Part shown: in pieces, positions 1,626-63,001 of the stretch | How the letters are laid out: each line of letters opens with the position of its first letter | Numbering within the stretch: the stretch's first letter is position 1 | NCBI GenBank assembly: GCA_963539665.1 | Contig: CAUTOX010000002.1 | Location: 787-64,786, forward strand | Source: an uncultured Treponema sp. | Lineage (GTDB): Bacteria > Spirochaetota > Spirochaetia > Treponematales > Treponemataceae | Length of the DNA stretch: 64,000 nucleotides | Direction: 5' to 3' | The notes under the pieces: model-generated | The model's database searches: none | Told to the model about the DNA's origin: nothing | The model's input: only the letters and a program-made list of their open reading frames with translations | Program-made: the position numbers and the translations under genes

Positions 1626-3923
1626 ATGGAGGATAAGATGAAAAAAATCATTTCTTTCATCTCTTTTTTCCTGTTGCTTTCTGCGGCGGCAGTTGCGGAA
1701 ATTACAGCGAAAAAGACGGCTGACGGAAAGCTGGAAGTTACGTTCTTCTACGGCAATCCGCGTGCGGAACAGGTCTTGCTTGCGGCAGACTTTACCAATT
1801 TTAAAGACGGCGCCCTGCCAATGACCAAAACGGACAAGGGTTTTACGCTCACTCAGATTTTTGAACCGGGCGCATCGGTGAAATACAAGTTTATTGTTGA
1901 CGACAACTGGACAACAGACCTCCGTGCGCCGGACTTTGTTGACGACGGCTTCGGCGGTAAGAACAGCTTTGCCGAGTTGGATTCGCTGGTCGCTGATGCT
2001 GGCGGCGCGGACAAGGCAAAAGACTCCGCAGCGGACAAAACGGCAAAGAAAAAAGGCCCAAAGGTTCAGTTCCAGTCTTGGACGATGCTTGGAATGCAGA
2101 CGAAGTTCAGTACACAAGGAAAGTTCGACAAGGATGCCAAAATAGACGATAGAAATAAGAAAGTAACAAAAGCGGACAATGTTGCGCTTGGCTTCAAATC
2201 GTATAACAAATTGCTTGGCGACCTTACGGGCAATATGCCGTTTTTTATTGAACTTTCAGTTTCTGGAGAAGACTATGAAGATGCACATGTTAAGCTGTAT
2301 GACCGTACGCTCAGCAGTGGAGCAAATGCAAATCTGGTAAAAAGCAGCCTCGGACATCTTATCTCTGATCCTGTAATGTACCTTGCAAACGGCACAGAGG
2401 GAAACTGGAAGAATGAGCCAAAACTTGGCCACCTGAAATTCGGATGGAATACGCCGTATGTCAATTACACGACCGGCTATATCTATGCGAGGCTGCCGGC
2501 GCGGAAAGAAATCATTTGGAATACCATTGCCGATAACTGGGAAGCCGGATATGAACACGTCGGCGGTTACAATTTATTTGAAAACGGCGCAAAATGGCAG
2601 AAAATCGGCGATAACACGCTGAAAGTCGGCGTAAACTTCAATAAATCGGCCGACCGCAAAGGAAACAACTTCGGTTCTTATGCATTCGCAACATTTGACG
2701 CCAATATGTGGAAAATCGACGCGCAGTGGAATACGATGTTCGGAAGAGAATACCAGTTCTATAAGCCGGTTGAAAACGACATCATCATCGGTGCAAAAGC
2801 CAAAATTGCCGACGTTTCAATCGCGGCGCAGGGACTTATCGCTATCCACAATATGAAAACGGCCGACCTTGTTAGTGACCCTAAAAATGGCTGGAGCATC
2901 GCAGATGTCTTTGGTTATTCAACAGATGTATTCTATCGTTCCGGTAAATTTGACGGTATCGAAAATCTGGCAGGGAACATTACCGTTGGTTATAAGAACG
3001 ACAAGTTTAACGTAAATGCCGAATATCGGTTCCGCGGTATGGAAGCATCCATGCTCTATGTTCGCAACAACCATGATGACAACGATCACCGTATCCGCAA
3101 TATGCTTGGCTCAAAAAATACCCAGCAGGTAACGCTGAAGTTCGGCTTCAATCCGCTAGATGCGCTTTCACTCGGCTTAAAGACAAGCATGGAGACAGAA
3201 TTGAAGCATTACGGCACCAGTGCGTCTGATAATGAATTCGTCGGCAACGTTATGAGTTCTTTGCCTGCGGGATATAAAGGCGGAACCGATCCAACACTTT
3301 TGGATAAATTCGGTGCGGAATTCGGATTTACTCCATCCGCAACCTATAAATTTAATGACCTGCTCGGCTTTAAATCCTCTCTATACGCGTACGGAATTAT
3401 GAATTTCGCCTCATATAGAAAAAGAGGAGCATCGGCAGATTACGAATACAGCGCATCCGATAGTAAATTTGCATTTAAGTATGCAGGACTTGCATTCAAA
3501 TCTGAAAAGCTCAGCGATGTCGTAGAAGCTTTGGACGTATACTATGGCCTTGACAATTCAAAGAAAGACCTTCTCGGTAACACCTTGATTGCAAGAGTTG
3601 CGCTTCCGTTCGACATGGAAGTAACTGGCGGTATCGGAATCCGTTCCATCAAGAGTACAAAGGGCGGGAAAGACTACAAAAAAGATGCTTTGAACCCATT
3701 CGGCTTTGCCTTGGGCTTTGCAAAGAAACTGCAGGCTATCAAGTCACCGAAAGTATATGCACAATTCATGTGGAATATGGATATATATAAAGGATTTGGA
3801 GATGGTCCGACTGAGCTGAATCTTTCAAACGGCGCAAACCTCGGCAAATGGGAGTATACCAAAGGGTTGGATAAGTATGACGGCGCAGGTGCATTGCGCG
3901 TAGGCCTGCACTGGAATTTCTAA
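1626..3923 (+). CDS. Putative outer-membrane beta-barrel protein with an N-terminal CBM48/AMPK-beta-like (early-set) carbohydrate-binding domain
   Basis: Signal peptide (MKKIISFISFFLLLSAAAVA; the likely start is the ATG at 1638). The segment VLLAADFTNF...VKYKFIVDDNWTTD resembles glycogen-binding modules. A long region of alternating beta-strand-like sequence ends in LRVGLHWNF, a C-terminal aromatic residue typical of OMPs. Confidence 0.5.
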   Translation: MEDKMKKIISFISFFLLLSAAAVAEITAKKTADGKLEVTFFYGNPRAEQVLLAADFTNFKDGALPMTKTDKGFTLTQIFEPGASVKYKFIVDDNWTTDLRAPDFVDDGFGGKNSFAELDSLVADAGGADKAKDSAADKTAKKKGPKVQFQSWTMLGMQTKFSTQGKFDKDAKIDDRNKKVTKADNVALGFKSYNKLLGDLTGNMPFFIELSVSGEDYEDAHVKLYDRTLSSGANANLVKSSLGHLISDPVMYLANGTEGNWKNEPKLGHLKFGWNTPYVNYTTGYIYARLPARKEIIWNTIADNWEAGYEHVGGYNLFENGAKWQKIGDNTLKVGVNFNKSADRKGNNFGSYAFATFDANMWKIDAQWNTMFGREYQFYKPVENDIIIGAKAKIADVSIAAQGLIAIHNMKTADLVSDPKNGWSIADVFGYSTDVFYRSGKFDGIENLAGNITVGYKNDKFNVNAEYRFRGMEASMLYVRNNHDDNDHRIRNMLGSKNTQQVTLKFGFNPLDALSLGLKTSMETELKHYGTSASDNEFVGNVMSSLPAGYKGGTDPTLLDKFGAEFGFTPSATYKFNDLLGFKSSLYAYGIMNFASYRKRGASADYEYSASDSKFAFKYAGLAFKSEKLSDVVEALDVYYGLDNSKKDLLGNTLIARVALPFDMEVTGGIGIRSIKSTKGGKDYKKDALNPFGFALGFAKKLQAIKSPKVYAQFMWNMDIYKGFGDGPTELNLSNGANLGKWEYTKGLDKYDGAGALRVGLHWNF

Positions 3924-4005
3924 AACTCTTTTTATCAAACTAAACGCACTTGCAGTGTGCGCCGTAAAGCCAAATCGCTTGCGGCTCACGCTGTGCTAAC
4001 AAACA

Positions 4006-4037
4006 AAAGCAGTTGCCCCATGCGGCAACTGCTTTTT
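4006..4037 (+). terminator. Rho-independent terminator downstream of the beta-barrel gene
   Basis: AAAGCAGTTGCC (4006-4017), a 6-nt loop, GGCAACTGCTTT (4024-4035), running into a T stretch. Confidence 0.7.
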
Positions 4038-4399
4038 GCATTTATAGAAGAATTAGCCGCTGGCAGTTTTCGTAAATAAAATAAATACCGCTTTACCGAT
4101 GCTTTTTTGCACTCTGCCCCGCCCGCTCCAAGTTCCCCCACAAGAAAAAGCGCACCTTTAAGCAGTATTCTATATTCCTTACGCATACGGAATTTTATTC
4201 ACGCGGAGGCTACCCCGACACTCTGCGTCAAGGGGTTTTGATTGACAGCGCACTTTTTTACTTATAATATGGCGGCCAAACAAATGGGAAGAGAACAAAT
4301 TGAGCGAGTAATCCCGTGCGGCAGCGCACCGCACACCGTTCAAGACACTGCCGGAATGCGGCGTTTCCGTAAAATGCAGCGGCAGAGGAGGCGTCGAAA

Positions 4400-5161
4400 T
4401 TGTCAAGTTTTATCACATTGTGCTGTCTTTTTACCTGCGTTGCATGGCCTTCCTTCTTAAACACGCTCGCATATCCGCTCAACATCCGCTGGAGCCGGAC
4501 AATTTCGCAATACATTGTAAAAGTACTCGCTCCGCGCGTATTCGCCATTCTCACTTGCTATCGGAATTTTCATTTTTTTGCCTACAATGACAGCAAAAAA
4601 CTCCTGCCGGAACAGTTTATCATCATTTCGAACCATCAAAGCCTTTTCGACATTCCCGCTTACATGAATTTTTTGCGCAACAAGGAACTGCGCTTTGTCG
4701 CAAAAGACAACCTTGCGCGGCACATTCCGCTTGTTTCAGAAATGTTGCGCGCACAGGAACATTGCATGATACCCCGCCGCGGCAGTCCGATGCTTGCAAT
4801 GAAAGTTGTCGAACGGTTTGGCCAGCGAATCCGCGAGCGGAATCAAATTCCCGTGCTTTTTCCGGAAGGTACGCGCTCGCGAGACGGCAACGTCGGCCGG
4901 TTTTATTCTGCGGGATTCCGGAAACTCTCCGAAACGCTCAATCTGCCGGTTGCGGTATGCGCACTCGACGGCGGTTGGCGAATCCGCGACATCGGCAACA
5001 TCATGCGCCGCCTGAAAAACGGCTGCTACCGCATCAAGGTTGTGAAAATCTACCCCGCCCCGCAAACAAAAGAAGCGGCCGCTGCAATTCTTGAAGAAAG
5101 CCGCGCGCTCATTCAGCGGCAGCTCAATGAATGGCGTACGCTCGGAACAGATAAAAAATAA
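4400..5161 (+). CDS. plsC: 1-acyl-sn-glycerol-3-phosphate acyltransferase
   Basis: HX4D motif NHQSLFD and the FPEGTRSRDG motif. There is an N-terminal hydrophobic segment. The exact start is uncertain. Confidence 0.75.
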   Translation: MSSFITLCCLFTCVAWPSFLNTLAYPLNIRWSRTISQYIVKVLAPRVFAILTCYRNFHFFAYNDSKKLLPEQFIIISNHQSLFDIPAYMNFLRNKELRFVAKDNLARHIPLVSEMLRAQEHCMIPRRGSPMLAMKVVERFGQRIRERNQIPVLFPEGTRSRDGNVGRFYSAGFRKLSETLNLPVAVCALDGGWRIRDIGNIMRRLKNGCYRIKVVKIYPAPQTKEAAAAILEESRALIQRQLNEWRTLGTDKK

Positions 5162-5752: not shown

Positions 5753-5785
5753 ATGCCCGTATATTTTAGCCGCTTGCATACTGCG

Positions 5786-6277
5786 CCGTCCGGTAGACTG
5801 CAATCGGGCAGGCAGACAGTCCGCCGACCGATCGCAATATCATCGCGGCAGCAACCGCCGGATATTCCTCCGTCCCGACCTGCGGCAACGCAGAGGCTCT
5901 TCCGCAAGCACGGAATGCTGCATCGCCAGACAAAAGCCAAACAGCACACACGGCAAGGTCGTGAGAGGTGCAAGGCGCATCATTAACAGCAAATCAGCCT
6001 CGCCCTCCGGTACACTGCAATCGTGCCGCTCGTCAACCAGCCGACCGATCGCAATGTCATCGCGGCCGAAACCGCCGGATATTCCTCCGTCCCGACCTGC
6101 GGCAACGCAGAGGCTCTTCCGCAAGCACGGAATGCTGCATCGCCAGACAAAAGCCAAACAGCACACACGGCAAGGTCGTGAGAGGTGCAAGGCGCATCAT
6201 TAACAGCAAATCAGCCTCGCCCTCCGGTACACTGCAATCGTGCCGCTCGTCAACCAGCCGACCGATCGCAATGTCAT
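5786..6277. repeat. Tandem repeat, 217-bp unit, about 2.3 copies
   Basis: The string CCGGTAcACTGCAATCG...GACCGATCGCAATgTCATCGCGGC recurs at about 5789, 6006 and 6223. ORF-track entries repeat with a 217-nt offset (5968 vs 6185). Confidence 0.85.
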
Positions 6278-6324
6278 CGCGGCAGCCCCTCGCGTGATTG
6301 CGGCACACCGCGCCTCGCAGAAAA

Positions 6325-15129: not shown

Positions 15130-15785
15130 AACGCGCTCCCAACATCCCGACCGCCAAAGCTTTTTGCCGTTAGGCAAAAGCGTCGCGGACGGCACGACCA
15201 CTAAAACAGAACGCGGCATCTTCCGCCGTCTGCGGCCTTCTGTCCGCCCAACCGCGCCAGCATACCGACTATCGTAGCGTTTTGCCGTAGGCAAAAGGCG
15301 TCGCGGACGGTACGTCCACTAAATGTTCAACAAGGCTCCTACCGCCGTCTGCGACCTTCTGTCCGCCCAATCACGCCAGCATACCGGCCATCGCAGCGTT
15401 TTGCCGCAGGCAAAAGGCTACGCGGCTGGTACGTCCCCTAAATGTTGAACGCGGCGCCTACCGCCATCCGCAAGGCACTACCATCAACCAGCTTGCCTAC
15501 AGGCAAACTAGTCGCGGACGGCACGACCACTAAAACAGAACGCGGCATCTTCCGCCGTCTGCGGCCTTCTGTCCGCCCAACCGCGCCAGCATACCGACTA
15601 TCGTAGCGTTTTGCCGTAGGCAAAAGGCGTCGCGGACGGTACGTCCACTAAATGTTCAACAAGGCTCCTACCGCCGTCTGCGACCTTCTGTCCGCCCAAT
15701 CACGCCAGCATACCGGCCATCGCAGCGTTTTGCCGTTAGGCAAAAGGCATCACGGACGGCACGACCACTAAAACAGAACGTGGCG
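15130..15785. repeat. Cluster of about 6 hairpin-bearing intergenic repeat units (about 95-120 bp) with a 329-bp higher-order period
   Basis: GTTTTGCCGTAGGCAAAA and GGACGGTACGTCC hairpins recur. The segment at about 15174-15405 is repeated at about 15503-15735. ORF-track entries 15007..15294 and 15438..15623 share an identical N-terminus at an offset of 329. Confidence 0.85.
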
Positions 15786-15843
15786 CCTACCGCCGTCCGC
15801 CACCGCTCAAAATTCTCCAAGTCGGAGATTCGGCTAAAAGAGC

Positions 15844-24775: not shown

Positions 24776-24789
24776 GCGCTTAACATTGT

Positions 24790-25480
24790 TGACCGCCTGT
24801 CTCAAGTTTGTCTGACGACAAACTTGCCAGTGGAGTCGTCGCCGGGGCGGACAGGACGGACTGAACCGAGAAGCGTTGACATGGTCGGCTGTCCACTTCA
24901 TGTTTTGCTGCAAGCAAAACATGCTAGCAGAGACGTAGACAGGCAGGAAGGATGCCGTAAGGACGTTACGCTGTCGGCCGCCTGCCTCAAGTTTTGTCTG
25001 ACGGCAAACTTGCGAGCAGGGACGGCTCGGCGGCGTAGCAGCTAGCAAGTTTTGCGTTTGCAAAACTTGGAGCAGACGGCCGTGCCGTTAAATCTTCCAA
25101 GTGCCATTTCTCTGTCCGCAGTGGTCGGGAGAACGAGCACCGTCGTAATGGAGTGGCTTGACCGACCGCTTCCAGTTTTGCGGGCACGAAACTGGCGAGC
25201 AGGTTCGTGGCACGGCGGTCGCGGTCGTGTAAAAAGGAACGCGGAGAGAACAGGGTATCTACTGCGGCGGGAGAATGGGCTTGACCACGTAGCAACTCGC
25301 AAGTGTTGCGCTTGCAAAACTTGGAGCGGACGGCCGTGCTGTTAAATCTTCTAAGTGCCCTTTCATCCGTCCGCCCCCCATTATGCAAGACCTTCTCGCC
25401 TGTTTTGCATAAAGCAAAACAGGAGGCAGGCGGACGCGGCCGTTCCAGCATTCCGGTATCACTTTCATCCGCCTGCCCCA
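24790..25480. repeat. Cluster of hairpin-bearing intergenic repeats (same family as 15130-15785)
   Basis: Seven spaced hairpins of the form CAAG-TTTTGC-loop-GCAAAA-CTTG, for example CATGTTTTGCTGCAAGCAAAACATG, CAAGTTTTGCGTTTGCAAAACTTG and CCTGTTTTGCATAAAGCAAAACAGG. GGACGG...TCCGTCCGCC blocks lie between them. Confidence 0.8.
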
Positions 25481-25482
25481 TA

Positions 25483-29009: not shown

Positions 29010-29691
29010 ATTTCCTCCTTAATATCGAACACAACCGCCCCGCCGCACACGTTCAACCGCGCCCTGCAGGCCCGTGAGCGTATCGATACAGCGCATTTGA
29101 AATCGCCATGAATTGTATAGATATAACACGCACTCGTAAAGTTCGGGAGTAAGACAACCGATTTGGCGGATTTCGTTATGTTACCGCCAGCCAGTTTGTT
29201 TCCTCAAAGCAAACAAGAGCGAACGGCACGAAAAGACGTGCTTATGGCATCGTTCTCGTTACTCGCCGTCGGCTAATGATCGGCCAACTGACGACAAAAG
29301 TATGAAAAAACGTAAATTATTAGGTTGAATGCCGAGTTTTTGGAAATAGTTAAGGGCACCTCGAAAAACTCGCTTTTTGCGATTTTTTCGAGATTGCGAC
29401 GAGTTGTAACTCGCTGGATTATCGCGAGTTACAACATCGCATTTTCAAAGTTACCTCTAAAAACTGAAGTTTTTAGAGGTTCCCTTAAGAAACAAGGAAA
29501 GAAGCGCGGCCGAACATCATCAACAAGATGGAACAAAAATGCAGAAATGCTGAAAAAGAAATGTCTAAACATCTCCGCCGCACTTCTTGCACAATGATAA
29601 ATCAGATTGTAATTCAATTTCATAACTGACCGGACTTTCTATTCTGTTGCGCGGCAAGGAATCTGGAAGGGTTCCTTAGAAAGCACTCGTT

Positions 29692-38711: not shown

Positions 38712-39588
38712 TTTTAAGTGTCGTTTTTGCAATGTCTGTAATGGGTACGGCTGTAAGGGCGAAATGCCGGGCATGGGGGGCGTTGACGACAGCCGCAATT
38801 TTATCTTGAACTGCGCAGACTGGGAAAAAATATATCATGCTGCCCTCCGTGATGGGAGTGCGCATGAAATCGACCGTATTCGGGTTAAAGCGGCGCACAT
38901 CGGGATTGCTCCGGTAACGGGCGCCGTTCAAAATGTCGGCTTTCAAAACGAACATGATTTTTACCTGCCGTATTTTACCGCTGCATATAACTGCGGCATT
39001 TTAGTCTGCACGGGCGATGGCGCGCCGGATGACAAGCTCGCGCTCAGCATCGAGGCAGTGCGGTCGCTCGGAACAAAGGCGTATTGCTTCCTCAAGCCCT
39101 ATCCCGACGATAACCTTTTGCGCCGCGTTGCGCTCGTCAAGGATCATGCGCTGGCAATCGGGATGGATATCGATGCGTACAATATTGTGTCGATGCGCGA
39201 TCAAGTGCGGCTGGAACGGAAAACGGCGGAGCAGATTGCATGGTTGCGCGGCGTTTCAAACCTGCCGCTCATGCTGAAAGGTATTTTTACGCCTGACGAC
39301 ATTGCGCTCTGCCGCGCTGTGCGGCCGGATATTGCGGTTGTCTCAAACCACGGCGGACGGGTGGATACCTGCATCGGTAGTACGGCGGAATTCTTAAAAG
39401 CGGCGGCGGGCGAATTGCATTCGTGTTGCGGAGAAGTATGGGTTGACGGCGGCATCCGTACCAAGCGCGACATCCAAACAGCGCTCTATCTTGGCGCTGA
39501 CCGCGTACTCATCGGCCGACCGTTCATCACTGCCGTTTGCAGAAGCGTTGGCACGATGGAAAACGCAATCCGCTCGCTGCTCGGCTGA
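38701..39588 (+). CDS. FMN-dependent alpha-hydroxy-acid dehydrogenase/oxidase family protein with an N-terminal Cys-rich motif
   Basis: SNHGGR, DGGIRTKRDI and LGADRVLIGRPF motifs. The N-terminus reads CRFCNVCNGYGC...PGMGG. A non-ATG (TTG) start overlaps the pfkA end, so the start is uncertain. Confidence 0.7.
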   Translation: MASDFKCRFCNVCNGYGCKGEMPGMGGVDDSRNFILNCADWEKIYHAALRDGSAHEIDRIRVKAAHIGIAPVTGAVQNVGFQNEHDFYLPYFTAAYNCGILVCTGDGAPDDKLALSIEAVRSLGTKAYCFLKPYPDDNLLRRVALVKDHALAIGMDIDAYNIVSMRDQVRLERKTAEQIAWLRGVSNLPLMLKGIFTPDDIALCRAVRPDIAVVSNHGGRVDTCIGSTAEFLKAAAGELHSCCGEVWVDGGIRTKRDIQTALYLGADRVLIGRPFITAVCRSVGTMENAIRSLLG

Positions 39589-40017
39589 ATGGGGCGCCCG
39601 TTAGCTCTGTTGCGCCGCGCGGCCGGATATTGCGGCTGTCTCAAACCGCGGCGGACGGGTGATACCAGCATCGGTAGTACGGCGGAATTCTTAAAAGCGG
39701 CGGCGGGCGAATTGCATTCGTGTTGCGGAGAAGTATGGGTTGACGGCGGCATCCGTACCAAGCGCGACATCCAAACAGCGCTCTATCTTGGCGCTGACCG
39801 CGTACTCATCGGCCGACCGTTCATCACTGCCGTTTGCAGAAGCGTTGGCACGATGGAAAACGCAATCCGCTCGCTGCTCGGCTGAATGGGGCGCCCGTTA
39901 GCTCTGTTGCGCCGCGCGGCCGGATATTGCGGCTGTCTCAAACCGCGGCGGACGGGTGATACCAGCATCGGTAGTACGGCGGAATTCTTAAAAGCGGCGG
40001 CGGGCGAATTGCATTCG
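39292..40017. repeat. Tandem repeat, 297-bp unit, about 2.4 copies: the 3' end of the preceding gene (with its stop codon) is reiterated
   Basis: ORFs 39589..39885 and 39886..40119 both encode ...IGSTAEFLKAAAGELHSCCGEVWVDGGIRTKRDIQTALYLGADRVLIGRPFITAVCRSVGTMENAIRSLLG, identical to the C-terminus of 38701..39588. Confidence 0.9.
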
Positions 40018-40178
40018 CGCTGCGGCAAAACGCGCTGCCTGAAAACCATTGCGGCCGTCGCCTTATATATACTTCTTTACCTGCGTTCTCGCAGTTTTCA
40101 TATTTTTCTGCACGGATGAGATGAGAGCTGCGGGATGTTGCGCTCTGAATCTTTCCCGCCTATTTTCGACACCGCATT

Positions 40179-49923: not shown

Positions 49924-49943
49924 CTGGCAAGAAGTGAGCGAAT

Positions 49944-52450
49944 AGGATTTAATTTTGCAGTCCGCCGTCCTCCGGTGTGTTTGTGTAAACCTGCGAGGGG
50001 GAAATGCGTTGGGGCGGGCGGGATGAATTTTCCGGCGGAGTTAATTTTGCAGTCTGCCTACATCCGGCGTGTTTGGCGCAAACTGGCGAGAGAGGAATAC
50101 GTTGGGGCGGGCGGATGGATTTTTTCAGACGGATTTAGCTTTACCATCCGCTTGCCTCCGGCGTGTTTGGCGCAAAACGGCGAAAGGGGATGCGCTGAGG
50201 CTGGTGGGATGGATTTTTCTGACGGATTTAATTTTACCGTCCGCTTGCATCCGGTTTATTTGGCGCAAACCGACAAGAGGGAATGCGTTGGTGCGGGTGA
50301 GATGGATTTTTCCAGCGGAGTTAATTTTACCGTCTGCCTGCATCCGGCGTGTTTGTGCCAACCGGCGAGGGAGAAATGCGTTGATGCGGGATGGATGGAT
50401 TTTCCGGCAGAGTTAGTTTTACTGGCTGCCTGCATCCGGTTTGTTTGGCGTAAACCGGCAAGAGGGAATGCGTTGGGGCGGGCAGGATGAATTTTTCCGG
50501 CGGAGTTAATTTTATCGTCCGCCGGCCTCCGGTGTGTTTGGCGCAAACCAGCGAGAGAGGAATGCATTGGGGCTGCCGGGATGGATTTTCCGGCGGAGTT
50601 AATTTTACTGGCTGCCTGCATCCGGCGTGTTTGTGCAAACCGGTGAGAGAGGGAAATGCGTTGGGGCAGGCGGATGGATTTTTTCCAGCGGATTTAATTT
50701 TATCGTCCGTCTGCATCCAGCATGTTTGGCGCAAAACGGTGAGAGGGGAATGTGTTGGAGTGGGCAGAGGGATTTTTTCCAGCGGATTTAGTTTTACCGT
50801 CCGCCTGCATCCGATTTGTTTGGCGCAAACTGGCGAGAAGGGAATGCGTTGGTGTGAGCGGATGGATTTTTTCAGATGGAGTTAATTTTACCGTCCGCCT
50901 GCATCCGGTGTGTTTGCAACCGGCGAGAGAGGAGTGCGTTGGTGCTGACGGGATGGATTTTTCCAGCGGAGTTAATTTTATCGTCCGCCTGCCTCCGGTG
51001 TGTTTGTGCAAACCGGCAAGAGGGAATGCGTTGGGGCGGGCAGGATAGATTTTTTCAGATGGATTTAATTTTACCGGCCGTCTGCATCCGGCGTGTTTGT
51101 GCAAACCGGTGAGAGGGGAATGCGTTGGGGCGGGATGGATGGATTTTCTGGCGGAGTTAGTTTTATCGTCTGCCTGCATCCGGCGTGATTGGCGTAAACC
51201 GGAGAGAGAGGAATGCATTGGGCGGGCGGATAGATTTTTTCAGATGGACTTAATTTTACCGTCCGTCTGCATCCGGCGTGTTTGTGCAAACCTGCGAGAG
51301 GGAATACGTTGGGGCGGGCGGATGGATTTTTCAGATGGATTTAATTTTATCGTCCGCCGGCCTCCGGCGGAGTTAGTTTTACTGGCTGCCTGCATCCGGT
51401 GTGTTTGTGCCAACCGGCGAGGGAGAAATGCGTTGGTGCTAGCGGGATGGATTTTCCGGCGGAGTTACTTTTATCGTCCGCCTGACACCGGTTTGCGTAT
51501 GCAAAACGGTGAGAGGGAATGCGTTGGTGTGGGCGGAGGGATTTTTTCCAGCGGATTTAATTTTACCGTCCGCTTGCATCCGGCGTGTTTGGTGCAAAAC
51601 GGTGAGAGGAGGATGTGTTGGTGCGGGCGGGATGGATTTTCCGATGGATTTAATTTTACCGTCCGCCTGCATCCGATTTGTTTGGCGCAAAAAGGCGAGA
51701 GGGAAATACGTTGGGGCTGACGGGATGGATTTTCCGGAGGATTTAGTTTTACCGTCCGCCTGCATCCGATTTGCGTGTGCAAACCGGCGAGAGGGGAATG
51801 TGCGGGTGCTGGCGGGCTGGATTTTTCCGGCGGAGTTAGTTTTACTGCCTGCCTCCGGCGTATTTGGCGCAAACCGGCGAGAGGGGAATGCGTTGGTGCG
51901 GGCGAGATGGATTTTTCTGACGGATTTAATTTTACCGTCCGCTTGCATCCGGCGTGTTTGGCGCAAAACCGGAGAGAGAGTACCGCGCTGGTGCTGGCGG
52001 GATGGATTTTTCCGGCGGAGTTACTTTTGCAGTCCGCCGTCCGCCGGCGTGATTGGCGTAAACCGGAGAGAAAGGAATGCATTGGGCGGGCGGATAGATT
52101 TTTTCAGATGGATTTAATTTTACCGTCCGTCTGCATCCGGCGTGTTTGTGCAAACCGGTGAGAGAGGGAAATGCGTTGGGGCGGGATGGATGGATTTTTC
52201 GGATGGATTTAATTTTACCGTCCGCCTGACTTCGGTTTGCGTGTGCAAACCAGTGAGGGGAGTGCGTTGGTACGGGCGGGATGGATTTTTCCGGCGGAGT
52301 TAATTTTACTGGCTGCCTGCATCCGGCGTGTTTGTGCAAATCGGAGAGAGAGGAATGCGTTGGGGCGGATGGATTTTTTTCAGATGGATTTAATTTTACC
52401 GTCCGCCTGCATCCTATGTGCTTGTGCAACCGGCGAGAGGGAAACGACGC
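49944..52450. repeat. Array of about 27 degenerate tandem units of about 93 bp (hairpin-repeat family, minus orientation relative to the other clusters)
   Basis: Units start near 49947, 50040, 50133, 50226 and so on. Each contains TTAATTTTACCGTCCGCCTGCATCCGGCGTGTTTGTGCAAACCGG..GGGAATGCGTTGGGGCGGGCGGATGGATTTTT. Open reading frames appear in most frames on both strands. Confidence 0.9.
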
Positions 52451-52552
52451 TTGAAGACCGGACTCTAGTCGAGAACTCTTAAAAAAGGCTGCTGCCGCAA
52501 AACACTAAAAGCGGCAGCCGAACAAAACAGGCGCTCCTGCTGTTGGAAGAAC

Positions 52553-52695
52553 TTCTCTTCAGCATAATGAAGGGATGTCCTTCACGGTAATGAAGAACAC
52601 TCCTTCAGCATAATGAAGGGACGGCCTTCACGGTAATGAAGAACACTCCTTCTGCATAATGCAGGACAGCTCTGCACTATGCTGAAGGCAGAGGT
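52553..52695. repeat. Tandem 46-bp repeat made of two 23-bp half-units, about 3 copies, giving six phased CCTTCA-n6-TGAAG palindromes
   Basis: CCTTCAGCATAATGAAGGGATGT and CCTTCACGGTAATGAAGAACACT alternate. The offset between equivalent positions (52563, 52609, 52655) is 46. Confidence 0.8.
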
Positions 52696-52711: not shown

Positions 52712-52835
52712 TAGACCTGTTCGGAAACTTCAGTTTCAGAACAGGCTACCTTGAAATGCGATGTTCTAAATCGTGCTATTTGCGCGATTTAGAACTCGAC
52801 GACCTGTTCGATAACTCTGTTATCGAACAGGTCTA
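52712..52835. mobile_element. Full-length (124 bp) MITE-like element with TAGACCTGTTCG...CGAACAGGTCTA termini and three internal palindromes
   Basis: TAGACCTGTTCGGAAACTTCAGTTTCAGAACAGG / TTCTAAATCGTGCTATTTGCGCGATTTAGAA / GACCTGTTCGATAACTCTGTTATCGAACAGGTCTA. Related copies lie at 30489-30589, 19350-19403, 28486-28522, 63021-63057 and 15844-15881. Confidence 0.7.
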
Positions 52836-56216: not shown

Positions 56217-59210
56217 ATGAACGCTGCATTTGAAAATAACAGAGCGCAACTTTCACAGTTGACGGAATTATTTGAAAGGAATAAAAAGCAGTACAATACA
56301 TCGGCTTATGATGAAGCAAATACCCGTACCGATTTTATTGACAAGTTTTTTGAACTTTTAGGTTGGGATATAAGGAATGAACAAGGTTATTCTGAACAAT
56401 ATCGGGAAGTTGTGCGTGAAGACAAGGTAACGATAGCCGGAAGGGTGAAGGCTCCCGATTATGCCTTCAGAATAGGCAGGGTGAGGAAGTTTTTTGTAGA
56501 AGCGAAAAAGCCGAGCGTGAACATTAAAGATGACCTTGAGCCGGCGTTTCAGGTAAGGCGGTATGGGTACACGGCAAAACTCCCTTTGTGTATACTTACC
56601 GATTTTGAAGAATTTGCCGTGTACGACACCCGTATAAAACCTTCGCCTTCCGATAAACCAAGTACAGCCCGTATCTTTTACTGTACCTTCGATGAGTATC
56701 ATAAAAATTTCGATTTTATTTTTAACACTTTTTCAAAAGAAGCGATTTTAAAGGGCAGTTTCGATACCTATATTCAGGAGAACAAAAATAAAAAAGGCAC
56801 TTCCGAGGTCGACAAAGAATTACTAAAACTGATTGAAAGCTGGCGGACGGATATTGCAAAAAATATCGCACTGCGTAATCCTTCGCTCAATATTTATCAT
56901 CTAAACACTGCCGTACAAAAAATTATCGACCGCATCATTTTCTTGCGAATTGCGGAGGATAAAGAAATGGAAGAGTACGGACTTTTGCAAAAGATAACCG
57001 AAAGCGGCACAGTGTATCAAAAGCTGCAAGCTGTTTTTGACAGAGCTAATGCAAAGTACAATTCGGGACTTTTTAAACCGCATGACTGGCTCCGCAGTTT
57101 GACTATTGATGATGCGGTTCTTTCTTCTATTATAACAAGGCTTTATTACCCCGAATGTCCGTACGAGTTTTCTATTTTACCGGTGGAAATACTCGGCAAT
57201 ATTTATGAACAGTTTTTGGGAAAGATCATAAAATTCCGCAATATCGGAGGTCGACGTTTTGACGGGAGTCAAAACTCGGAGGTTTCGTCCGATAGGACGA
57301 ACACCCGACACACTGCGCTGATCGAAGAAAAGCCAGAGGTAAAAAAAGCCGGCGGTGTGTACTACACCCCACAATATATCGTCCGCTACATTGTAGAAAA
57401 TACCCTCGGCGTAAAAATAAAGGGGCAAAGCCCTGACGCTATTGCTCAGCTTAAAGTGGTTGATCCCGCCTGCGGTTCAGGCTCCTTTCTTGTTGAAGCG
57501 TATCAGCAGCTCTTGAATTATCATTTGGACTATTATTCAAGCGAAAAGGAGCAGAAGCTGGCTCTGAAAAAAAGCCGTATTTATGAATCAGGGCAAAATG
57601 TTTATAAACTCACTATTGAAGAAAAGCAGCGTATTTTGCTGAATAATATTTACGGAGTGGATATAGACGGTCAAGCTGTGGAAGTTACCAAGCTTTCGCT
57701 CTACTTAAAGCTGTTGGAAAATGAAGGGAGCGAAACGCAAGGGCAGTTATTTAAGTTTTCGGACATGAAGCTTTTACCCTCGCTCGATTCGAATATTAAA
57801 TGCGGCAATAGTCTTGTCGGTTCCGACTATTATAACGAAAAAGACGTAAGCCTTTTTGACGATGAAGTAATGCGGAAAATCAATACCTTTGACTGGGACA
57901 AGGAATTTCCGGAAGTCTTTGCTCAAGGCGGTTTTGACTGTGTGATTGGGAATCCGCCGTATGTGAACATCAGTGTATTTCCTGAACTGCACACATATTT
58001 GCAAATAACATATCCTATAATACACACAGGTTATAACGATTTGATGTATTATTTTATGTATCGCGGTATTGAGTTCTTAAAAGAAGATGGATTGTACGGT
58101 ATTATTACTTCAAATTATTTTTTGGGAAATGAATATGCGAAAAAATTACGAGTCTTTTTATCCGACAAGATTACCAAAATTTTAAATTTTAAAAATGCAA
58201 AAATATTTAGCGCAAATGTACATACTGCATTAGTATTTGCAGAAAAACATACAACAAATGACATCGATATTTTTACATATTCAAGCGATAAAGCTCCTGA
58301 TTCCGTAATTATAGAAAATGATTACTCATATATCACGATGAAAAGGAATACACTCAGTGAAGTATGGATTCTTGCCGATAGCAAAAAACAGCATGTTATT
58401 GACAAAATGAAAACAGATTCAATATATCTTGGTGATATAATGATTATCGAAAAAGGATCATCATCAGGTAAAAATGATATTTTTACAGTACCGCTTTCCG
58501 TTGCGGAAGAAGGTGCTTTTGAAAAAGACCTTATACGAAAAAATATAAAAAACGGCGATATTCATAGATACCGTTTAGAAAATAGGAAAACCGTTCTGAT
58601 TTATACAGATAACAAAACCGACATAAAAAAGTATCCGAATATTTATAAATATCTTTCAGCACATAAAAAAGAACTCAGCAACAGAAATGAGGTTTCAAAA
58701 GGAGCCTATGCATGGTATCGATTAGAGCGCCCTCGTGATAAAAATATTTTTGATGCAAAAGAAAAATTGATTGTCCCATATCGGGCAACACAGAATCGCT
58801 TTGCATATGATAATCAACAGTATTTCAATGACGGCGGTGATATCCGTGCATTAGTAATGAAAGAAAATATGCCTTTTAATATTAAATATCTACTGGTATT
58901 ACTCAACTCAAAACTACACAACTGGTATTTTGGCTTTATCGGTAAATCAAAAGGAAATACGCGGGAATATTTTAATAAACCTCTTGCAGAAATTCCCATA
59001 AAAACTATTTCACCGGAGGATCAAGCCCCGCTTATCACTCTTGCAGACCAGATGCTTGAAACGCAACGCAGATTGCAGCAAGCCCTATCCGATGAGGATA
59101 AAAAACTCTTGGAACAACGAGCGGCAATTATTGATAAGCAGATAGATAAGGCGGTATACCAGCTATACGGCTTAACGGAAGAAGAAGTGAAGATTGTGGA
59201 GGGGGAGTAA
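56217..59210 (+). CDS. Type IIG restriction enzyme / N6-adenine DNA methyltransferase (single chain: N-terminal PD-ExK nuclease, Eco57I-type gamma-class MTase, C-terminal specificity region)
   Basis: HsdR_N-like nuclease motif APDYAF...FFVEAKKP. Helical linker ILGNIYEQFLGK. AdoMet motif VVDPACGSGSFLVEAY. Catalytic motif VIGNPPYV. 997 aa. Confidence 0.85.
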   Translation: MNAAFENNRAQLSQLTELFERNKKQYNTSAYDEANTRTDFIDKFFELLGWDIRNEQGYSEQYREVVREDKVTIAGRVKAPDYAFRIGRVRKFFVEAKKPSVNIKDDLEPAFQVRRYGYTAKLPLCILTDFEEFAVYDTRIKPSPSDKPSTARIFYCTFDEYHKNFDFIFNTFSKEAILKGSFDTYIQENKNKKGTSEVDKELLKLIESWRTDIAKNIALRNPSLNIYHLNTAVQKIIDRIIFLRIAEDKEMEEYGLLQKITESGTVYQKLQAVFDRANAKYNSGLFKPHDWLRSLTIDDAVLSSIITRLYYPECPYEFSILPVEILGNIYEQFLGKIIKFRNIGGRRFDGSQNSEVSSDRTNTRHTALIEEKPEVKKAGGVYYTPQYIVRYIVENTLGVKIKGQSPDAIAQLKVVDPACGSGSFLVEAYQQLLNYHLDYYSSEKEQKLALKKSRIYESGQNVYKLTIEEKQRILLNNIYGVDIDGQAVEVTKLSLYLKLLENEGSETQGQLFKFSDMKLLPSLDSNIKCGNSLVGSDYYNEKDVSLFDDEVMRKINTFDWDKEFPEVFAQGGFDCVIGNPPYVNISVFPELHTYLQITYPIIHTGYNDLMYYFMYRGIEFLKEDGLYGIITSNYFLGNEYAKKLRVFLSDKITKILNFKNAKIFSANVHTALVFAEKHTTNDIDIFTYSSDKAPDSVIIENDYSYITMKRNTLSEVWILADSKKQHVIDKMKTDSIYLGDIMIIEKGSSSGKNDIFTVPLSVAEEGAFEKDLIRKNIKNGDIHRYRLENRKTVLIYTDNKTDIKKYPNIYKYLSAHKKELSNRNEVSKGAYAWYRLERPRDKNIFDAKEKLIVPYRATQNRFAYDNQQYFNDGGDIRALVMKENMPFNIKYLLVLLNSKLHNWYFGFIGKSKGNTREYFNKPLAEIPIKTISPEDQAPLITLADQMLETQRRLQQALSDEDKKLLEQRAAIIDKQIDKAVYQLYGLTEEEVKIVEGE
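57250..57305. repeat. Double-hairpin module inside the RM coding sequence (candidate in-frame repeat-element insertion)
   Basis: GTTTTGAC-GGGA-GTCAAAAC (57256-57275) and TTCGTCC-GATA-GGACGAA (57284-57301). The layout is the same as GTTTTGCC-GTA-GGCAAAA ... GGACG-GTA-CGTCC in the intergenic repeats. Confidence 0.55.
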
Positions 59211-59360: not shown

Positions 59361-60209
59361 ATGCCGTATTTAACAGGTCCAATGTTGTGTAGTATTTCAA
59401 CTCAATTCGGTCTTGCGGTTAGATACAATTTTGATACAACCAATGATAAAAAACAAAATAAAAGCAGATGGACATATCTAACTGATTTATTTGAATATTC
59501 TATTATGACCGGTTCTTGTTCAAATTTGCTATCATATCTTTTCGCACGAAAAAATTTTACAAATGAAACTTTTAAACAAAATATGAAAGATGATTCTTAT
59601 GGGTATCAAAATTATCAAGAGTTAGACGATAACGAAACTAATTATGCATACAAAATAATTATTGAACGAGTTATTAAAGAAATAAATGAATTATTAAAAT
59701 TTAGTCAAAAAGAACTCGCTATTGTATCAGATAATATTATTATAAAACCTATTACTGATGATATTAAAATTGAAACACCAAAAATAAAAAATATGGATGA
59801 TAAATATATTCAAAGTAAAGCTAACCAAGCTAAAGTTCATATCGAACAAGGTCAGTACGATACAGCCCTTACTCAAGCCCGCACAATATTGGAAGAAGTA
59901 TTTTGTTATGTCCTTGAAAGGAAAAATATAGAACCTATAGCAGCAGGAAAAATTGGAGAACTTTATAAACAAGTACGAGAAGTTTATAATATGCATATAG
60001 ATGATAATACTGATAAAAGAATAAAAAAATTATTATCGGGACTTAACACGATTGTTGATGCTATAGCGGAAATGCGAAATCAAATTAGCGATGCTCATGG
60101 ACAGGGTTCAAAAAGAAAAAGCATAAGAGATTATCATGCCCGACTCGCTGTTAATTCGGCTATTACGGCAGCAGAGTTTATTTTATCGGTATATGAACAT
60201 GCTACATAG
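59361..60209 (+). CDS. Abi_C-domain (abortive infection C-terminus) protein; the reading frame may begin at 59218 through a -1 shift at an A7 tract
   Basis: The C-terminus LSGLNTIVDAIAEMRNQISDAHGQGS...YHARLAVNSAITAAEFIL matches the Abi_C signature (RN..sdaHG). AT-rich. The in-frame open stretch extends upstream to 59229 without an ATG. Confidence 0.65.
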   Translation: MPYLTGPMLCSISTQFGLAVRYNFDTTNDKKQNKSRWTYLTDLFEYSIMTGSCSNLLSYLFARKNFTNETFKQNMKDDSYGYQNYQELDDNETNYAYKIIIERVIKEINELLKFSQKELAIVSDNIIIKPITDDIKIETPKIKNMDDKYIQSKANQAKVHIEQGQYDTALTQARTILEEVFCYVLERKNIEPIAAGKIGELYKQVREVYNMHIDDNTDKRIKKLLSGLNTIVDAIAEMRNQISDAHGQGSKRKSIRDYHARLAVNSAITAAEFILSVYEHAT

Positions 60210-60222
60210 CATAAAACTGTAA

Positions 60223-60350
60223 CAAGCCCTATCCGATGAGGATAAAAAGCTCTTGGAACAACGGACGACAATTATTGATAAGCAGATAGATAAGGCGGTA
60301 TATAAATTGTATAATTTAGCGGAAGAAGAAGTAAAGATTGTGGAGGGGGA
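60223..60350. repeat. Diverged direct copy (offset 1144 bp) of the last 128 bp of the RM gene (59079-59206)
   Basis: CAAGCCCTATCCGATGAGGATAAAAA.CTCTTGGAACAACG...ATTATTGATAAGCAGATAGATAAGGCGGTATA...GAAGAAGAAGT.AAGATTGTGGAGGGGGA is present at both sites. The second copy would encode ...QALSDEDKKLLEQRTTIIDKQIDKAVYKLYNLAEEEVKIVEGENDY*. Confidence 0.85.
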
Positions 60351-60352
60351 AA

Positions 60353-62626
60353 ATGATTACTGAAATTACGATGAAAAATATCGCGACTTATAATAATATT
60401 GGTGTTAAACTTGAGGGATTAAAACGGCTCAATTATTTTTTTGGAAACAATGGTTCCGGAAAATCTACAATCGCAAAATATTTGCAATCGCTTGTAATAG
60501 GTGATCCGGAAAATAAATATTCATCATGTTCAAAAGAAAATTATAACCCTATGCAGGAAGAAATTCTTGTGTTTAACCAAGATTTTGTCGAGAGAAATTT
60601 TAGGCAAAGCCAAGTCCTAAAAGGTGTTTTCTCATTAAATCAAAAGAATGCTGAAATTGATAAACAAATAAAACTAAACGAAGAAAGTATTTCAAACAAA
60701 CGTAGAACAAAGAATGACATGGAAGAAGAGAATAACATACTTGATCAGCAAAACAATCAACTTAAAACAGAATTAACAAAAAAATGTTTTAATAAAAGAA
60801 ATGTTTTTAAATCTTTTTCAAAAATGAGACTTGATCATTCAAAGAATATGAAAAATAATTTAGAACAAGTTGAAAAAATCATTCAGAATAATAGTATTGT
60901 AAAACCAGACTTTAGTACCCTAAATGATTTATATAAAAAGCTTTATGAAGATGATTTAAGCAGTATTGATGTTTTACTTGATATACAATTATTTGATGAG
61001 TTATTGCAAAAACATAATGAACTATCAGTATTGTTGCAAGAAATTATTATAGGTAAAGAAGATGTACAATTAGCAAAATTGATAAATGAATTTGGTTTAA
61101 AGTCTTGGGTTGCGCAAGGTAAAACATTTCTTGAGAAAACAAAGACTGTTTGTCCGTTTTGTCAAAAAGAAACGATAGACAATGATTTTATTTCGCAATT
61201 AAATGATATTTTTGACGAATCGTCAAAACAAAAGATAGACAAAATAAAAAGTGAAAAAATCATTTATGAGAATACATTCAAAAGGGTTTTGCAAAATATT
61301 CAAGCCGTATATGAAAAATACAATGTGAAAAACATTGTTTCAAATCTACAAATGAGCTTAAAAACCATTTATGATATTAACTTAAAAATAATAAGTGATA
61401 AAATCAATGCACCGAATGAAAAGAAAGCACTTGATGATATAACAGAATCATTTAAAAATATACTATTACAAATTAATAAGGAAATAGAAAATAATAATAC
61501 TCTTGTCAACTCTCTTGATACTCAAAAAGAGTCTTTAGAAAAACAAATATGGGATTACATTGCTCTTGACTGCAAAGATGATATTCTAAAATATCAAGAA
61601 GAGACTAAATCAACTACTGAAATTATTAATAAAAATAAAACTGGAATTGCGAGACTACTAGCGGAAATACAACAATTAGAACAAGAAAATGCTACACTAA
61701 GAGATAAAACTGTTAATACTACAGAAGCCGTTTATAATATAAATAAAATTTTGGAAAACTCCGGCTTTATGGGTTTTAAAATTTGTGAACAAACTAAAGA
61801 AAATAACATCTCCCAATATTATTTATCAAGAAATTCGAAAACACGTGAAGGTAATATATTTAATAGTTTGAGTGAAGGAGAGAGCAATTTTATTGCATTC
61901 TTATATTTCTACCAACTTTGTTTAGGTACTACGGATATTCAAGAAGGTTCTGAAAAAAAGAAAATAATTGTTATCGACGACCCTGTTTCAAGTATGGATA
62001 GCCAAGTATTATTTATCGTTTCAACATTAGTAAACAGGTTAATAACATATAAAGGCAGGAGCGGAGGAGAAAAAAAGGAGTTTCTAAATGGAAACATTGA
62101 ACAAGTTTTCATATTAACTCATAATTATTACTTCTATAAAGAAGTTGCAATGCAAAAACGACCTATATGTAAATCCCAACAGCATTATCTAATCGAAAAG
62201 AATGCGATTAATGAGTCATACATAAAATTGCGTGAATATAAAGAATACGATGACTATGCATTAATGTGGCAAACAATAAAAGAAGCAAAAGAAAAATTAT
62301 CTGATGACAATAAAGAACAAAATATTCTCCTGGCGAATTTATTTAGACGTATTTTAGAAAGCTATGCTAACTTTATAGGGCTTGGTACGGATTCTTGGGC
62401 AACTATTCTGGCGGATAATGACAAAGATAGTATGGAACATCATTTGAAAACTGCTTTTATTTCAATGATCAATGATGAAAGTCACAAAGTTTCGCCATTT
62501 GATAATTTTTATTTTCAAAAGATTCATAATGCTAATCCATCAAAGTTGTTTGAAGTATTTGAATCAATCTTCAATACTATTGGTAAAGAGCATTACGATA
62601 GGATGATGGAACCCAATAAATTATAA
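60353..62626 (+). CDS. AAA_13-family ATPase with coiled-coil CxxC hook and a PrrC/RloC-like C-terminal region (candidate anticodon nuclease)
   Basis: Walker A FFGNNGSGKSTI. Long coiled-coil segment with VCPFCQ. Walker B/D-loop IIVIDDPVSSMD. H-loop ILTHNYYF. C-terminal LFRRILESY...(37 aa)...NDESH resembles the PrrC/RloC Arg-Glu-His arrangement. The start is taken at the ATG at 60353. Confidence 0.7.
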   Translation: MITEITMKNIATYNNIGVKLEGLKRLNYFFGNNGSGKSTIAKYLQSLVIGDPENKYSSCSKENYNPMQEEILVFNQDFVERNFRQSQVLKGVFSLNQKNAEIDKQIKLNEESISNKRRTKNDMEEENNILDQQNNQLKTELTKKCFNKRNVFKSFSKMRLDHSKNMKNNLEQVEKIIQNNSIVKPDFSTLNDLYKKLYEDDLSSIDVLLDIQLFDELLQKHNELSVLLQEIIIGKEDVQLAKLINEFGLKSWVAQGKTFLEKTKTVCPFCQKETIDNDFISQLNDIFDESSKQKIDKIKSEKIIYENTFKRVLQNIQAVYEKYNVKNIVSNLQMSLKTIYDINLKIISDKINAPNEKKALDDITESFKNILLQINKEIENNNTLVNSLDTQKESLEKQIWDYIALDCKDDILKYQEETKSTTEIINKNKTGIARLLAEIQQLEQENATLRDKTVNTTEAVYNINKILENSGFMGFKICEQTKENNISQYYLSRNSKTREGNIFNSLSEGESNFIAFLYFYQLCLGTTDIQEGSEKKKIIVIDDPVSSMDSQVLFIVSTLVNRLITYKGRSGGEKKEFLNGNIEQVFILTHNYYFYKEVAMQKRPICKSQQHYLIEKNAINESYIKLREYKEYDDYALMWQTIKEAKEKLSDDNKEQNILLANLFRRILESYANFIGLGTDSWATILADNDKDSMEHHLKTAFISMINDESHKVSPFDNFYFQKIHNANPSKLFEVFESIFNTIGKEHYDRMMEPNKL

Positions 62627-62648: not shown

Positions 62649-63001
62649 ATGTCTTATGAACCAGTTATTGAACAAGTAAAAATGCTGCCGGAGCCGCTAT
62701 TGGCTTCCTTAAAATTCACCGCTACAGGAAGTTTGAACTTCCGAAAGCGCTGAATTGGTGTGCGCAAGCACACATATAAATAGGCGATGTTTTGTATTTT
62801 TGCAAAACTCGCGTTTAAGTTGAACGACTTTATCTTAGTCGTTCAACTTAAACTATAGTGACAGCTTTTATCAAATTGCTTGAAGCAGAGCAAGGTTGTG
62901 TTACGGGAAATTATACCAAGCAAGCATTCTTTGCATTAGCAGGGAAAATCCATCTTGACCAAGATGCAGTAACCGAATTACGCGAGGCAAGATTGATATG
63001 A
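62649..63001 (+). pseudogene. Disrupted antitoxin gene (DUF2281/VapB-like), split by an insertion of about 150 bp
   Basis: A good RBS (AAGGAGG) precedes MSYEPVIEQVKMLPEPLLASLK. After the multi-hairpin insert (about 62716-62866) a different frame reads ...FIKLLEAEQG...FALAGKIHLDQDAVTELREARLI*. The stop overlaps the next ATG (ATGA). Confidence 0.45.

Follow-up and report, generated by a model that had tools for sequence, protein, structure and literature searches.

Repetitive extragenic palindromic sequences (REPs) are imperfect palindromes of 20-40 nt that occur in proteobacteria in multiple copies outside genes, in association with RAYT transposases and with a GTAG tetranucleotide that is conserved. 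The TD-1 and TD-2 motifs of oral treponemes (Rfam RF03155 and RF03162, clan CL00124; Weinberg et al. 2007) are present in Treponema denticola in 28 and 36 copies, respectively; their function as RNAs was regarded as uncertain by their describers, and TD-1 was proposed to be cis-regulatory (PMC1950547). Rickettsia palindromic elements (RPEs), with a length of ~100-150 bp, lie in frame in dozens of unrelated genes per genome (PMC10969869). Here we describe a Type IIG restriction-modification (RM) gene of an uncultured Treponema sp., located in a 64,000-nt stretch of contig CAUTOX010000002.1 (the window), in which a protein linker was lengthened by two 27-nt pieces of hairpin-forming DNA, termed E1 and E2. 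Alignments and covariance models identified E1, the younger piece, as a complete 27-nt stem-loop of the TD-1/TD-2 clan.

E1 resembles the TD-1/TD-2 hairpins in its CGA/UCG base, single bulged base, GUUU...AAAC segments, covarying inner stem, 4-nt loop and length of 27 nt. It is found in the same host genus, and a near-threshold TD-1 copy lies 5.5 kb downstream of the insert. However, the full motifs comprise 98-120 nt whereas the insert holds one hairpin, and E1 lies within a translated open reading frame (ORF) whereas the examined TD copies and TD-like hairpins are intergenic. [quoted passage not shown] As in RPEs, stop-free palindromic repeat DNA lies in frame in a still-intact gene, in an apparently permissive surface region. 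The unit described here, however, is 27 nt long instead of 100-150 bp, is found in one gene family instead of many unrelated genes per genome, and probably owes its distribution to a single gain followed by recombinational spread. Nor does the insert show the terminal inverted repeats and target-site duplication of a MITE, since the flanking copies of TCGGAGGT are 32 nt apart and two T. denticola alleles differ by patch replacement. The arrays of the window and the placement of E1 beside E2 recall REPs and bacterial interspersed mosaic elements in their short clustered palindromes with covarying stems between convergent genes, but REPs are extragenic whereas E1 is inside an ORF.

A Type IIG enzyme with an enlarged linker

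The reading frame and motifs of the RM gene (Table 1) are intact, as judged by ORF analysis, Pfam and motif inspection. The protein matched the Pfam families Eco57I (136.8 bits), MmeI_Mtase (56 bits) and N6_Mtase (49.8 bits), with a PD-(D/E)xK nuclease at the N-terminus (HSDR_N, 35.4 bits vs a cutoff of 25.1) and TaqI_C as the C-terminal target recognition domain (TRD) of the same polypeptide (51.3 bits, residues 780-928). The nuclease motif D81...E95-A-K97 is present, and the methyltransferase motifs X (GVYYTP), I (DPACGSGSF) and IV (NPPY) are located at residues 380, 416 and 579, respectively. By its nuclease, methyltransferase and recognition domains, the protein can be assigned to the Eco57I/BpmI-type Type IIG enzymes, with which it shares the full architecture and all catalytic motifs, and the insert-bearing enzyme is probably active. 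The canonical 12-aa linker of these enzymes, VIRLTxGHxAKV, is traceable on both sides of the insert (IIKFRN...RHTALI). However, the linker of Eco57I/BpmI-type enzymes has 12-15 aa, whereas that of the window enzyme, between YEQFLGK and EEKPEV, has 33 aa (not 32, as counted in the first-pass annotation, which omitted the final I).

A survey of 80 homolog loci from many phyla yielded 82 linker matches, two loci having two copies each. The same interval was 12 aa long, in the VIRLTxGHxAKV form, in 61 of the 82, which agrees with the figure of about a dozen residues in the first-pass annotation, and 15-16 aa long in most spirochaetes. The alignment also bore out that the linker segment is extra, in frame and encoded by hairpin-forming DNA. 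We then compared the best 120 protein homologs, a set from the Treponema lineage in which the few entries with a source name are labelled Treponema or Spirochaetales. Three length states accounted for nearly all of them: state A (IIKFRNVKGGHTALI, 15 aa) in 62, state B (IIKFRNIGGRVSSDRTNTRHTALI, 24 aa) in 51 and state C (IIKFRNIGGRRFDGSQNSEVSSDRTNTRHTALI, 33 aa) in 6, the window among them, with the canonical 12-aa linker in one. Each step, from A to B and from B to C, adds 27 nt (9 codons) at the DNA level. Hairpin 2 is present alone in state B, and hairpin 1 is added in state C. State A is ancestral, as shown by a more distant Treponema group (EINFKNVKNGHTVTV) and other phyla, the outgroups having 12 or 15 aa. 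The alleles thus point to two separate 27-nt events; a single insertion of 60-70 bp, as proposed in the first-pass annotation, is ruled out by the presence of hairpin 2 only in state B and by the 27-nt size of each step. The 24-aa alleles with hairpin 2 only are indeed common (51/120) and old, and those with both hairpins are rare and young.

In the window, hairpin 1 (GTTTTGAC-GGGA-GTCAAAAC, 57256-57275) and hairpin 2 (TTCGTCC-GATA-GGACGAA, 57284-57301) are both perfect and in frame in the RM gene, and on this point the sequence and the ORF agree with the earlier annotation. The hairpin-1-type pattern had an expected count of 0.00 in window shuffles, and the 83-nt hairpin segment was more stably folded than shuffles (z = -2.9). 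The 66-nt expanded patch stands in place of 12 nt (VKGG) found in state-A alleles, and its GC content of 55%, compared with 38% for the RM gene, is foreign to that gene. An inferred state-B allele with the reading GGT CGG GTT would become identical to state C on the addition of 27 nt, and the residues on either side would stay the same.

E1 as a TD-1/TD-2-type stem-loop

An Rfam scan of the whole window gave zero matches at the gathering threshold, and at a permissive threshold it gave a weak TD-1 match at hairpin 1. In the Rfam TD-1 alignment, the reverse complement of hairpin 1 fits every conserved position of the 5' hairpin together with the single bulge. The TD-2 consensus hairpin, cGA(n)GUUUugcc-guaA-ggcaAAACUCg, comprises 27 nt including the bulge. 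E1 written as RNA, CGA-C-GUUUUGAC-GGGA-GUCAAAAC-UCG, likewise comprises 27 nt, which is the exact difference between states B and C.

We built a custom covariance model from four TD hairpins, namely the two Rfam consensus hairpins, the TD-1-like copy of the window and the TD-2 of locus L010, leaving out E1 and E2. With filters off, E1 scored 30.2 bits (E = 3.4e-5) over 27/27 positions and ranked second in the window, after the training copy (37 bits) and before a match of 19.7 bits. When the model was run on 890 kb from 54 other loci, scores above 25 bits were obtained only for the training copy and copies of E1. The next match, from T. vincentii, lies within an Rfam TD-2 match (44.9 bits, E = 6.5e-4) and served as an independent positive control. 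The non-Treponema genome loci searched gave no comparable match, in keeping with the confinement of the clan to oral Treponema genomes with several copies.

The 5' hairpin of the TD-1-like element in the window (62785-62811 on the forward strand) reads CGA-T-GTTTTGTA-TTTT-TGCAAAAC-TCG, and in L010 a TD-2 above the gathering score adjoins the RM gene. In a survey of strong hairpins, GTTTTG-N(3-9)-CAAAAC was found five times in the window against 0.09 expected, and the TD-like hairpins of the window other than E1 were all intergenic. E1 carries one TD module without being itself a TD-1 or TD-2 element by the Rfam definition. "No repeat relationship", based on Smith-Waterman and nhmmer scores at chance, was premature for E1 because such linear tests are underpowered for a covarying hairpin of 27 nt; it stands for the 15-kb array and E2.

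The first-pass annotation had derived both hairpins from a double-hairpin module of ~60-70 bp belonging to the intergenic repeat at 15.1-15.8 kb, inserted once in frame like an RPE. Insert and array indeed have the same hairpin order and the same 8-nt gap, hairpin 1 and the array hairpin have GTTTTG.C/G.CAAAA in common, and a profile of the array aligned colinearly with 57241-57292. However, this nhmmer alignment reached 4.8 bits (E = 1.3) and the Smith-Waterman score was 18 against a chance maximum of ~25 (P = 0.53), both at chance level, and a profile of the second array gave E = 37 on the insert. The loop lengths differ as well, and hairpin 2 has its arms in the opposite order to those of GGACG-GTA-CGTCC. 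In its first hairpin, the 15-kb array is similar to the TD-2 consensus over the variable inner stem and is without the canonical CGA-n/TCG base that E1 has; the custom model scored the array hairpins at 11.8-16 bits, compared with 30.2 bits for E1. A single gain is also at odds with a hairpin-2-only state that is common, diverse and old beside a young state C. Nor are there direct repeats at a spacing of 27 nt from which hairpin 1 could have been cleanly deleted, the sole flanking repeat being 32 nt apart and out of frame. We regard a single inserted module as extremely improbable, and as largely refuted by these data.

Hairpin 2 matched none of the repeats found in this analysis, and its proposed descent from the same repeat module therefore failed: fuzzy, window-wide and TD-model comparisons gave no match. 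The state-B patch has no relative in the window (P = 0.9), and a fuzzy search of 1.33 Mb of DNA with both hairpins gave matches at RM linkers only. In view of this lack of a match for hairpin 2, it is by coincidence that the hairpins of insert and array agree in order and spacing. A repeat-family origin thus holds for E1, through the TD-1/TD-2 hairpin, but neither for the 15-kb array as its source nor for hairpin 2.

Age, spread and origin of the two insertions

State-B patches diverge by 7.7-12.8% between alleles, which is not significantly lower than the divergence of their flanks (14-19.5%). Hairpin 2 carries one mismatch in the state-B allele L008 (TCT for TCG) and two in L010, introduced by synonymous substitutions, and is perfect in every state-C allele. 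Since the divergence of the state-B patch resembles that of the flanks and the hairpin decays synonymously, E2 is old, its structure is not conserved, and it has drifted like ordinary coding sequence. The state-C patch showed 0-1 differences in 66 nt between alleles whose flanks are 6.7-13.2% apart (Fisher P = 0.0015-0.013). Such near-identity despite diverged flanks indicates that state C is young and spread recently among alleles, probably by short-tract recombination. E1 was not seen without E2 in the 120 best homologs, which is consistent with a single origin of E1.

Two T. denticola alleles in syntenic positions, L005 in state C and L008 (chromosome CP038800.1) in state B, show only 22 substitutions over 2.9 kb, and three of these lie within 10 nt of the 27-nt indel. 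This clustering indicates that a short patch was exchanged, with a minimum length of 37 nt and, for a donor similar to the window allele, a maximum of ~80 nt. The specificity domain of the window enzyme is 100% identical to that of the state-A allele L001 and ~40% identical to that of the state-C allele L011. Allele identity profiles showed no breakpoint at the linker, the mosaic junction lying ~250 codons downstream. We also observed that the TRD half (alignment columns 630-990) was exchanged between alleles independently of the N-terminal half: the TRD of the window is ~40% identical to those of L011 or L005 and 100% identical to that of L001, and the N-terminal halves are 85-97% identical throughout.

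The near-invariance of the E1+E2 patch at 7-13% flank divergence, with hairpin 2 perfect in all state-C alleles, might alternatively mean that the hairpins are kept for a function, either as a TD-type RNA or DNA structure that tunes RM expression through pausing, cleavage or factor binding, or as a recombination site for the swapping of gene halves. The proposal of TD-1 as a cis-regulatory motif (PMC1950547) and a GGAGGT sequence, similar to a Shine-Dalgarno sequence, upstream of each hairpin would fit this idea. We nevertheless judge such a function to be very unlikely. Low diversity is equally explained by recent spread, hairpin 2 decays synonymously in state-B alleles, E1 is missing in most alleles and both hairpins in about half, and the junction between the exchanged halves is far from the linker. 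Furthermore, no in-frame start codon follows the GGAGGT sites in the RM gene. A terminator and promoter scan around the insert gave nothing convincing.

The order of events could in principle be reversed, with state C as the ancestor through one 54-nt gain, state B formed by deletion of hairpin 1, and the uniformity of state C due to a recent sweep. State B is much more widespread and diverse, however, no direct repeats spaced by 27 nt are available to guide an in-frame deletion, the differing unit is exactly one TD hairpin, as a gain predicts, and the lack of TD affinity of E2 suggests different origins for the two halves. Although palindromes are prone to deletion, two events are needed under either scenario and the L005/L008 pair shows only the interconversion of states by patch exchange, we consider this reversed order highly improbable.

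Independent expansions of 6 aa were observed in the same loop in a termite-gut Treponema (L019, VKGKAAEQSTH) and a Spirochaetia bacterium (L064, VKGKADGVRQH), neither with notable hairpin potential, and further independent expansions were found in L028, L040 and others. The loop is thus a recurrent indel site in the spirochaete members of this enzyme family, and the site tolerates insertions, because other spirochaete lineages lengthened it independently without hairpin-forming DNA. Given such an indel hotspot, both hairpins might have arisen as local replication errors unconnected to any repeat family, the TD resemblance of E1 being fortuitous; the searches gave no donor copy for either E1 or E2, and a TD-shaped hairpin did occur by chance in a viral contig. 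This local origin is rather unlikely in our view. The predecessor alleles contain none of the hairpin arms, the gene contains no template for fold-back or template switching (P = 0.54), the other lineage-specific expansions are not hairpin-rich, the GC content of the insert is foreign to the gene, and E1 fits the TD hairpin at all conserved positions, in its bulge and in its exact length.

The account that we favour, and hold to be reasonably probable, is that a permissive loop was enlarged twice, by E2 long ago and by the TD hairpin E1 recently, and that the resulting patch spread by recombination. The enlarged site is the loop between a helical connector (...ILGNIYEQFLGK) and motif X (GGVYYTP). 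In a first, old step, the 27-nt hairpin-forming piece E2 would have converted the 15-aa spirochaete linker to 24 aa. In a second, recent step, which probably took place once, the complete TD stem-loop would have been copied in 5 nt upstream of hairpin 2, in frame and stop-free, adding RRFDGSQNS(E). The copying most likely took the form of a template switch guided by microhomology or of illegitimate recombination involving a TD element close by. Classical cut-and-paste transposition is disfavoured relative to a one-off templated copy because there is no clean target-site duplication: the two copies of TCGGAGGT that bracket hairpin 1 are 32 nt apart, which is out of frame and does not match the 27-nt difference. 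The E1+E2 patch would later have passed between diverged RM alleles by short-tract homologous recombination. The inserts presumably persist owing to their position at the tip of a loop that is tolerant and probably exposed, and the insert is most likely a neutral passenger there. The surface location suggested in the first-pass annotation is compatible with the AlphaFold model, albeit one of low confidence, in which strands 339-343 (KFRNI) and 364-368 (RHTAL) form a β-hairpin with the insert (residues 344-363, 20 residues) as its disordered tip.

Several observations weigh against this account. E1 reached 19.5 bits with the full Rfam TD-1 model (gathering threshold 64.5), as it comprises one hairpin only, and E2 showed no TD affinity with the custom model, which scored the window copy at 10.2 bits and the copies of state-B alleles at 4.5-7.8 bits. 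This model was trained on four sequences, of which two are consensus strings, and yields rough E-values. The 20-mer of hairpin 1 had 0 exact occurrences in 185,579 representative genomes and 0 in viral contigs, and in metagenomes it was found in one contig, again in an RM gene; a donor copy identical to E1 was thus not found in the genome, viral or metagenome scans. A scan of viral contigs with the pattern GTTTTG-N(8-10)-CAAAACTCG gave mostly chance matches and one full TD-shaped hairpin, in contig L203, which is not TD by Rfam; such a hairpin can thus arise by chance in very large databases. Two synonymous sites separate the sampled state-B alleles from the sequence inferred to have preceded the insertion, and therefore either the event was complex or the exact parent was not among the sampled alleles. 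Finally, the AlphaFold model is poor (mean pLDDT of 62, below 50 in the linker), and no solved chain in the Protein Data Bank aligned before residue 374 in a search for the linker.

A variant of the favoured account, in which the TD stem-loop is a mobile REP-like unit that inserts beside existing hairpins, even in ORFs, and E2 is an older, decayed case, is unlikely. If it were true, the RM loop would be a trap that records such insertions, the TD-1 and TD-2 candidate RNAs would not be functional RNAs but composites built from a hairpin repeat at the DNA level, and among palindromic elements known to enter bacterial genes in frame the unit would be the smallest.

Neighbourhood, other repeats and implications

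Table 1. Positions of the RM gene, its inserts and the related repeats in the window
Feature	Position	Strand	Description
Type IIG RM gene	56217..59210	+	997 aa, 38% GC; nuclease, gamma-class N6-adenine methyltransferase and TaqI_C specificity domain
Expanded loop patch	57243..57308	+	ATC...CGA, 66 nt, 55% GC; encodes IGGRRFDGSQNSEVSSDRTNTR; from the three-state protein/DNA comparison
E1	57252..57278	+	CGA-C-GTTTTGAC-GGGA-GTCAAAAC-TCG; younger 27-nt insertion; encodes RRFDGSQNS; TD-1/TD-2-type stem-loop in TD-2 orientation
E2-derived segment	57279..57308	+	Older 27-nt expansion holding hairpin 2; encodes (E)VSSDRTNTR; alone in state-B alleles
8-nt direct repeat TCGGAGGT	57244..57251; second copy 57276-57283	+	Brackets hairpin 1; read from the sequence
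Full-length TD-1-like element	62708..62820	-	63.0 bits with the Rfam TD-1 model (gathering score 64.5); whole-window E = 6.7e-8
Intergenic tandem array (15 kb)	15139..15823	+	~119-nt units, GTTTTGCC-GTA-GGCAAAA ... GGACG-GTA-CGTCC; sole site of that repeat
Second intergenic array (24.8 kb)	24776..25482	+	GTTTTGC...GCAAAAC hairpins, convergent genes on either side; custom model 13.7-18.1 bits, weakly TD-like

Downstream of the RM gene, at 59361-62626, lie the genes for a 282-aa protein with Abi_C (abortive infection C-terminus) and for a 762-aa AAA_13 ATPase, which form a small defence island ending at the TD-1-like element. The last ~130 nt of the RM gene (59074-59206), encoding a conserved C-terminal helix (...IDKQIDKAVYQLYGLTEEEVKIVEGE), are duplicated with 87% identity at 60218-60350, just upstream of the AAA_13 gene and with the Abi_C gene between the two copies. 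The gene that follows the RM gene varies among alleles (DUF4917, KAP NTPase or Abi_C) and also differs between L005 and L008. The duplication around Abi_C together with this variation suggests cassette swapping at the 3' end of the RM gene. L008 further contains a gene for an IS110-family transposase (DEDD_Tnp_IS110, 3689-4777) that is missing at the same place in the syntenic L005.

The window contains repeats other than the TD-1-like element. A large tandem array at 49934-52429 consists of ~27 units, which are ~93 nt long and contain one inverted repeat apiece (e.g. CAGACGGA...TCCGTCTG). This array, at 50-52.4 kb, was detected by the profile of the 24.8-kb array with E-values of 7e-5 to 3e-3, and that profile also detected sites at 42.3-42.6 kb and 10.42-10.48 kb, which points to a dispersed family of intergenic repeats in this genome. 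The 93-nt array is directly followed, at 52546-52683, by 23-nt units (GAAGAAC..CTTCAGCATAAT / GAAGGGA..CCTTCACGGTAAT), each of which is an inverted repeat. Three hairpins with long loops, all intergenic, are located at 29333-29439 and 52759-52798. Two of them have the TD base CGATGTT...AACTCG, gaaa(a)tg upstream and 16-nt loop insertions, and these hairpins may be a TD-related sub-family. Two longer tandem repeats were also observed, one of 297 nt at 39306-40025 (~2.2 copies, 96-100% identical over the stretches compared) and one of 217 nt at 5784-6286 (~2.3 copies, 80-94% identical).

The RM locus offers a dated case of the stepwise growth of a protein loop by the capture of hairpin DNA, repeat-derived in the case of E1, with the 15-, 24- and 33-aa states all still segregating and a near-isogenic pair of states available in T. 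denticola (L005/L008). This pair and that of the window and L001 alleles, which have identical specificity domains and different linkers, provide natural material on the tolerance of insertions between the nuclease/helical and methyltransferase halves of such enzymes. As an in-frame insertion of a palindromic repeat, the case belongs to a kind already known, and its novelty is moderate, lying in the very small size of the unit. It also bears on whether TD-1 and TD-2 are functional RNAs or repeats: their signature hairpin here appears to act as transferable DNA that tolerates translation, hinting at repeat-like behaviour of the TD hairpin at the level of DNA, and the DNA of a "candidate RNA motif" can evidently become a translated part of a protein.

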